Under the pieces are notes generated by a model. That model searched no databases. It saw nothing but the letters and a program-made list of their open reading frames with translations, and was not told the origin of the DNA. From the NCBI GenBank assembly GCA_041572575.1, contig JBFFSH010000009.1:1-49594 (forward strand): DNA of 49,594 nucleotides, given 5' to 3'. Positions 8,805 through 9,068 of this stretch are shown in pieces. A program made the translations under genes and the position numbers. Origin of the DNA: Thermodesulfobacteriota bacterium (GTDB taxonomy: Bacteria; Desulfobacterota_D; UBA1144; Nemesobacterales; N074bin48). The first letter of the stretch is position 1; the number at the start of each line of letters is the position of its first letter.

Positions 8805-9068
8805 TTAATCCGCCCCAAAATCCTTTACAAATTCTGCATCCGGTACCACTTCTTCAGGTTTTACTCCGAGTTGGGTTATAATTAAATTTTTCATAATCCC
8901 CCACACCTGCTCATTATTCAAGGATTTATCATTATTATTGGCAAGATTACTTAGGATGAGTTTATAACAGTCATTAACAGTGACTACTTTGCCAGCCTCT
9001 TCATCATCAACAGATATATCAAAAGCTTCTTCAATGCTTATTATTAATTCGACTAAATCTAATCCCAT
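8805..9068 (-). CDS. Circularly permuted acyl carrier protein-like protein lacking the phosphopantetheine Ser
   Basis: N-half GLDLVELIISIEEAFDISVDDEEAGKVVTV matches the ACP C-half ([30 protein letters not shown]). C-half IITQLGVKPEEVVPDAEFVKDFGAD matches the ACP N-half ([26 protein letters not shown]). Confidence 0.88.
   Translation of the reverse strand: MGLDLVELIISIEEAFDISVDDEEAGKVVTVNDCYKLILSNLANNNDKSLNNEQVWGIMKNLIITQLGVKPEEVVPDAEFVKDFGAD

Follow-up and report, generated by a model that had tools for sequence, protein, structure and literature searches.

The 87-residue protein P0001 is an acyl carrier protein (ACP) whose halves have exchanged places, the chain being cut open exactly at Ser36, the residue that bears the cofactor. 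Its gene lies in the window, by which we mean the whole stretch of 49,594 nucleotides that was analysed, and is read on the minus strand from 9068 to 8805 as 87 amino acids followed by TAA. The protein begins MGLDLVEL and ends DFGAD-stop. An in-frame stop two codons 5' of the ATG excludes an earlier start for this frame, and the plus strand is closed across 8805–9068. ACP positions are numbered throughout as in E. coli ACP, by offset. The gene and its parts are as follows.

8805–9068, minus strand: gene for P0001, an 87-residue, circularly permuted, Ser-less protein of predicted ACP fold; TAA stop at 8807–8805.
8937–9068, minus strand: residues 1–44, Met and Gly2 (Ser36 position), then ACP helices II, III and IV, from the half alignments (model helices 5–16, 22–26 and 31–44).
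8916–8936, minus strand: residues 45–51, a variable linker joining the old C- and N-termini; in long members the site of a putative second fold resembling ACP, which may or may not carry a membrane hairpin.
8808–8915, minus strand: residues 52–87, ACP helix I and the loop after it, the last residue at the Asp35 position, from the half alignments (model helix 52–67).

In a phmmer search of PDB chains, residues 3–41 match the second half of AcpP and residues 61–87 match its first half, ending at the D of DLGAD. In a profile–profile comparison of 27 short family members with 21 canonical ACPs, 44 columns starting at Gly2 align so that Gly2 falls on the Ser column (E = 4.5e-19); a further 36 columns run up to Asp87, which falls on the Asp before Ser (E = 5.3e-15). 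The helix order is II–III–IV–I, with chain ends at positions 36 and 35, whereas canonical AcpP is colinear, I–II–III–IV. The exchange of the halves, and a breakpoint placed exactly at the Ser, had both been proposed in a preliminary description of this DNA and are confirmed here: aligned separately to AcpP, the two halves match in exchanged order, with Gly2 at Ser36 and the last residue at Asp35. The loading Ser of the D-S-L motif is missing and Gly stands in its column, which supports the accompanying claim that P0001 is not a normal holo-ACP. A Ser in the linker (KSL) had been named there as a possible substitute loading site; this residue, Ser49, is kept in the eight closest homologues but not across the 27 short forms, and it lies outside the modelled AcpS interface. 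The linker region does join the old termini, as had been described, but richness in Asn is no feature of the family. A register based on G-L-D-S, which resembles a PKS motif, was considered and rejected: only Gly2 as Ser36 agrees with the downstream spacing, and any of T, S, A, G and L can occur at position 5.

The four-helix ACP fold is a prediction, accompanied by strong sequence matches for both halves. The AlphaFold2 model of P0001 contains four helices (pLDDT 81.8, pTM 0.69). Foldseek searches with this model and with that of a long form gave no match at E = 0.001; the best matches of both were ACP chains, those of P0001 being aligned one half at a time and all at E of 1 or above. Sequence-based annotation is divided. 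P0001 passes PF00550 in Pfam (24.5 bits against a cut-off of 20.8), but all 12 of its NCBIfam matches fall under their cut-offs (TIGR00517, 61 against 70.45 bits) and NCBI labels its homologues, whose source names are Ca. Dadabacteria or Thermodesulfobacteriota, 'hypothetical protein'. The expectation that pipelines would probably call it an acyl carrier protein is borne out in part.

The family was sought in GTDB genomes with a DNA pattern for the first 16 codons only. The C-terminus lay outside this pattern, so the register of the chain end provides an independent test. At least 120 loci were found, and the matches listed include Planctomycetota, Verrucomicrobiota, Bacteroidota, Acidobacteriota, cyanobacteria and proteobacteria. 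Full flanks were available for 80 of the loci, which gave 78 complete ORFs. Under a lenient motif 66 of these finish exactly at the Asp35 register (42 under the strict motif D[LFM][GR]xD), and three finish one residue short of it. The other nine comprise one that is diverged but in register by eye, one false match, three that are cut off and four in which a stop or frameshift separates the first half from the second, which lies downstream. Broken alleles of the gene thus number four split and three truncated among the 78, with one more that is internally deleted.

A profile search of 1.84 billion representatives returned 4,228 matches at E = 1e-10, a count that takes in canonical and tandem ACPs. 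Among the best 150 of these, 141 are permuted (131 by regular expression, ten by eye) and nine are canonical or tandem; 120 of the 131 classed by regular expression end in register. Position 2 is Gly in 135 of 136 parsed representatives, a figure somewhat biased by a profile built from Gly-bearing rows; the remaining representative, P0160, has Ser. The last residue of 116 in-register representatives is D in 63%, G in 22%, S in 7%, E in 4% and N in 3%. The position of the end is therefore fixed in the family and its side chain is not. Variable breakpoints, which had been named as grounds for abandoning the proposal, were not observed; the breakpoint is identical across phyla. Whether the MG-L-D start and the G-x-D stop are invariant had been posed there as a check; Gly2 is nearly so, but the last residue is not. 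Read-through into the next gene was rejected as all three stops are in use (TGA 45, TAA 23, TAG 12).

As a canonical reference we used 77 ACP sequences from the fetched loci, which represent few lineages and were picked by their Ser motif. Ser occurs in 77 of 77 of these sequences, as the set was selected on that motif, against Gly in the family. The surface residues kept in the family are D31 (98%), L37 (100%), D38 (90%), E41 (99%), E47 (100%) and D56 (79%), together with V40, and conservation is relaxed at the acidic residues E49, E53, E57, E58 and E60. In PMC12469350, helix II is described as the recognition helix for FAS enzymes, and position 68 as facing the acyl pocket. P0001 has all four of the recognition-helix residues D35, D38, E41 and E47, for which conservation in the family is 63, 90, 99 and 100%, respectively. 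Position 68 is Ala in 73% of the 77 canonical ACPs and Leu, Met or Phe in 83% of the family (Cys in P0001); the predominance of Leu in this pocket gives a hint against long acyl cargo. The mean net charge is -9.4 for 54 short forms, compared with -14.1 for canonical ACPs.

An independent contig of run X12, which is not marked as a possible source, spans 7691–9809 with two differences, and the gene is therefore not a misassembly. The 90% cluster of P0001 contains six members of 87 residues. For pairs above 55% identity dN/dS is 0.07–0.34 in ten of 17, the other seven being dS-saturated; the window gene gives 0.23 against locus L141 and 0.29 against L142. The gene is under purifying selection. 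Misassembly and absent selection had both been offered as ways in which the proposal might fall, and neither was found. We note that a second contig, from run X10, matches the 5' end of the gene (9017–9072) with five differences before continuing into different upstream DNA, and represents another strain or a relative with a different upstream neighbour. The contigs from RNA libraries are uninformative on transcription, because those of X15 cover genes of both strands evenly and X19 contributes three 151-nt pieces. Promoter and terminator counts around the gene are at chance level.

Family members fall into length clusters of 82–96, about 121, 176–202 and 210–243 residues, and about half of the top representatives are membrane forms of 220–250 residues. 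The insert of 19 mid-length forms is colinear with canonical ACP (HHalign probability 70%, E = 3.9e-5, against E = 0.19 for the reversed control), whereas the insert of the 18 longest forms aligns more weakly (27%, E = 6.9e-4, against 0.93) and carries a hydrophobic stretch modelled as helices 110–132 and 140–158 (pLDDT 92.1). Judged by these alignments, the long members appear to combine a permuted outer ACP with a second ACP fold that has degenerated and is often joined by a membrane hairpin. In 45 membrane forms the inner domain opens with a Cys (C-L-x-S/Q-x-x-F-Y) whose conservation is at least 90%; short forms lack this Cys. The ACP-like inner domain suggests an origin from a tandem array, and the permutation was likely born by trimming such an array at both ends. 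In the tandem ACP repeats P0050, P0057 and P0116, trimming at both ends yields the helix order of the family; these proteins keep their DSL motifs and run past the Asp35 position, however, and the family does neither. In the singleton P0063 (119 residues, on a contig of 1,059 nt) a canonical DSL junction precedes a C-terminus of the family type, which stops at the Asp35 position; the protein could be either an evolutionary intermediate comprising one and a half ACPs or the product of a chimeric assembly.

Short and long forms occupy the same place in related genomes. The slot between the DUF6869 and SIMPL genes holds an 87-residue form in L141 and L142 and a 232-residue membrane form in L144. 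The outer halves of the short P0005 and P0012 are 87–88% identical to that of the long P0049; the short form equals the long form less 145 codons, with a 3-nt match at the junction that is weak evidence, and P0094 has lost a different part of the insert. On an outer-half tree of 198 sequences, which is noisy as it is built on few columns, the short and long labels switch 35 times, compared with a mean of 65 in 300 shuffles, and the nearest neighbour of 32 of the 88 short forms is a longer form. The simplest reading of this unrooted tree is that short forms arose by repeated deletion from long ones. As both the anchor and the inner domain are dispensable in close relatives, the permuted outer domain appears to be the working unit.

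The surroundings of the gene in the window include the following.

6307–7026, minus strand: SIMPL (DUF541) gene, directly downstream of the permuted gene in L142 and L144, where it bounds the variable slot on the other side.
8275–8802, minus strand: 175-residue ORF with a hydrophobic N-terminus and six Cys, 2 nt downstream; no match in any other fetched locus.
9118–10437, plus strand: 439-residue membrane glycosyltransferase-like ORF (weak PMT match below the cut-off), between the DUF6869 gene and the permuted gene; absent from this place in L141, L142 and L144.
10409–10780, minus strand: DUF6869 gene, directly upstream of the permuted gene in L141, L142 and L144; a slot marker of this lineage only, with none in the other fetched loci.

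The 175-, 153- and 439-residue neighbours have no match in the other fetched loci, and the first has no Atlas match. The gap of 2 nt to a secreted Cys-rich gene was correctly described, but this neighbour is incidental and does not travel with the permuted gene. The statement that fatty-acid synthesis genes are absent nearby also stands: none is recognizable by eye among the ORFs of the window, 11 of which were scanned against Pfam. The same genome encodes a canonical ACP on contig C15 and AcpS on contig C20. Between SIMPL and a gene that we take to be yeaQ-like, positions 7067–13308 contain a variable series of small ORFs on the minus strand, most of which are missing from L141, L142 and L144. 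Reading by eye from 5400 to 14100 revealed no repeat family resembling a recombination site and no cassette-array signal. PADLOC-DB 2.0.0 gave no matches at E = 0.01 for P0001, P0049 and eight neighbours.

Across the family, no neighbour family occurs in more than four loci among 482 ORFs around 70 loci, and no FAS, PKS or PPTase family was found among 132 directly flanking ORFs (long ones cut to 420 residues). An ATP-grasp loading enzyme does not recur in the 70 loci, the one match among the 132 flanking ORFs being a biotin carboxylase domain protein. Each of ten genomes checked, and the source genome itself, has a single permuted copy accompanied by one or more canonical ACPs. Of 101 genomes sampled from Hymenobacter, the genus of L091, 27 were found to carry the permuted gene, which usually occupies the same slot behind an acyl-CoA dehydrogenase gene. 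A functional link with this dehydrogenase, which lies upstream in 17 of the 27 loci, was rejected since the synteny holds within one genus and not across phyla. Within L312–L338 the small genes between the dehydrogenase and a HIRAN-domain gene change from locus to locus, with a DUF5615 gene in L328. In the phylum of the window the gene was detected in one of 120 genomes at E = 1e-11, a cut-off at which long forms that have diverged might escape notice. The permuted gene is solitary, single-copy, accessory and often lost, and has no conserved partner across phyla. Three Pyrinomonadaceae/Pyrinomonadales loci (L040, L084 and L066) carry an 82-residue form right after nuoI, which in L040 and L084 lies between nuoI and nuoJ; PDB names indicate that mitochondrial complex I carries an ACP subunit. 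None of 12 pattern matches in viral contigs was confirmed, seven phage records gave half-length matches only, and plasmids gave none. There were no fusions among 7,999 candidates of 421–2000 residues, which is weak evidence.

A model of P0001 with the AcpS trimer of its own genome, CoA and Mg scored 0.68, the best of three controls scoring 0.15. The value of 0.68 is reached by 116 of 157 solved pairs and two of 215 mismatched pairs, although the AcpS calculation is unlike those of this calibration. Agreement between runs is 89% of contacts or better, and the partner pLDDT is at least 88. The modelled interface comprises residues 2–3, 6–7, 10, 13–14, 22–23, 26, 81–85 and 87 of P0001; both cut ends lie inside it, with Gly2 touching Glu57 of AcpS. 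By motif, Glu57 is likely the counterpart of Glu58, which binds the nucleotide 5'-phosphate in the AcpS described in PMC3447402, where contacts of ACP D35/D38 with AcpS Arg14 are also given. As AcpS–ACP complexes have already been solved (PDB entries 1f80 and 4dxe), the pass may reflect likeness alone, and the model shows likeness and not binding.

In our view, an ACP fold cut at Ser36 is probably, though far from certainly, a permanently unloaded mimic which competes with AcpP for docking sites on ACP-binding enzymes. Of the options listed in the preliminary description, a mimic or decoy fits the evidence best. It is supported by the fixed ends, the near-universal Gly2, the kept surface residues, the bulkier pocket position 68, the AcpS model, the lack of FAS, PKS or PPTase families among the 132 flanking ORFs and the single copy beside a normal ACP. 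Methionine is removed before Gly, and Ser or Ala would allow removal too. The initiator Met of P0001 would be cleaved, leaving Gly2 where Ser36 was, and the swapped halves are predicted to assemble as a single helical bundle. Its reconstructed face, with both cut ends, is predicted to fit AcpS, and the ends may be kept fixed since any added residue would intrude on the contact with the partner. In the long forms the hairpin could hold the mimic at the inner membrane face, near acyltransferases that use acyl-ACP. The enzymes occupied might be those of the cell itself, as a brake on lipid synthesis in the manner of apo-ACP, or those of an invader, as a protective decoy; we consider the two about equally probable. 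Two published cases provide precedents: in E. coli, apo-ACP is an inhibitor of glycerol-3-phosphate acyltransferase and of growth (Keating et al. 1995, cited in PMC3896788), and a Plasmodium mitochondrial ACP without phosphopantetheine (Ppant) acts by protein binding (PMC8547962). Several observations argue against mimicry. A plain Ser-to-Ala change also yields an unloadable ACP, and mimicry alone leaves the 99% Gly2 unexplained. The lower net charge could mean weaker binding to host enzymes, and the place next to nuoI in three Pyrinomonadaceae loci is odd for an inhibitor. The decoy version in particular gains no backing from PADLOC, where there is no match, or from phages and plasmids, where there is no full-length match.

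It is rather unlikely that the unloaded fold is instead a positive scaffold or subunit which stabilizes or activates one specific partner without competing with AcpP. The Ppant-less Plasmodium ACP on Isd11–Nfs1 (PMC8547962) would be a precedent, retention of only a subset of the acidic residues suits a single partner, and both the abundance of membrane forms among the top representatives and the three positions right after nuoI are in keeping with such a role. A dedicated partner is difficult to reconcile, however, with the want of a conserved neighbour among the 482 ORFs, the patchy occurrence even within one genus or the phylum of the window, and an anchor and inner domain that close relatives dispense with. 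We also regard as unlikely the option, raised previously, of a carrier loaded through a terminus. Once Met is removed, a housekeeping enzyme would attach either phosphopantetheine, giving a phosphoramidate, or an acyl group to the free amine of Gly2, and the cargo would then be carried or stored by the protein. The near-universal Gly2, at a position where Ser or Ala would also permit Met removal, speaks for this, as does the modelled contact of Gly2 with the likely counterpart of Glu58 (PMC3447402). Against it, no loading enzyme is found among the 132 flanking ORFs, P0160 has Ser, and pocket position 68 is bulkier than in canonical ACPs. An acyl group attached to the terminus, with no long Ppant arm, would fall short of the FAS active sites. 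To our knowledge no PPTase loads an alpha-amine, and a literature search returned no paper on such loading. The LysW-like variant, with loading of the Asp side chain, is disfavoured by the Gly ends. In LysW/AmCP carriers an invariant acidic C-terminal residue bears the cargo and an ATP-grasp loading enzyme is clustered with the carrier; in the family of P0001 the last residue varies and no such enzyme recurs near the loci.

Head-to-tail cyclization, the third option listed, would ligate the ends into a circular Ser-less ACP; in its favour, the ends are in exact register and fall in one modelled interface. We think it very improbable. The stop comes directly after the last residue, so that the chain has no leader or follower by which transpeptidation could be driven. 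The final residue may be D, G, S, E or N, three of 78 chains are one residue short, and no ligase or peptidase recurs next door. That the gene is a functionless, decayed piece of a tandem ACP or an assembly artefact is largely refuted and scarcely credible. The nine canonical or tandem ACPs in the best 150 matches to the same profile and the broken alleles are what such debris might leave, but identical breakpoints across phyla, the low dN/dS values and the independent contig that spans the gene are not.

Among known systems, AcpP (PF00550; TIGR00517) has both halves and the recognition-helix and core residues in common with the family. The family differs in its swapped halves, in a backbone open between 35 and 36 and in Gly for Ser; it lies outside any fab cluster, is patchy, scores below the TIGR00517 cut-off and in its long forms adds what appears to be a second fold and a membrane hairpin. 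By analogy, apo-ACP, an unloaded ACP which still binds ACP-using enzymes, is the most likely working likeness. For AcpP the apo form is transient and open to loading by AcpS, whereas P0001 would represent the unloaded state fixed in a separate gene. The Plasmodium protein is likewise a natural ACP that lacks the prosthetic group and works by protein binding; it is essential, its partner Isd11–Nfs1 is named, and the abstract of PMC8547962 does not mention permutation. The family of P0001 is by comparison dispensable and patchy, and has no known partner.

A full-text literature search, which could miss a mention in a large computational survey, found no description of a permuted ACP family. We conclude that this is a real, large and conserved bacterial family present in many phyla for which no description was found. 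It represents an unusually exact natural circular permutation at a functional residue, with long and short forms in one lineage. As Pfam passes its members as phosphopantetheine-binding, the family can inflate ACP counts in genome mining. There is a small chance that it reveals new carrier chemistry, in which the N-terminal Gly sits in the PPTase active site and is loaded on its amine by housekeeping enzymes (N-linked phosphopantetheine or N-acyl) in both soluble and membrane-anchored carriers; if so, these would be carriers that work through the chain end rather than through a serine. ACP is a hub of bacterial lipid metabolism, and if the mimic reading is true, a dedicated look-alike of this kind in many phyla would indicate either an unrecognized regulator of ACP-using enzymes or, in the decoy version, an unknown attacker of ACP that cells counter.
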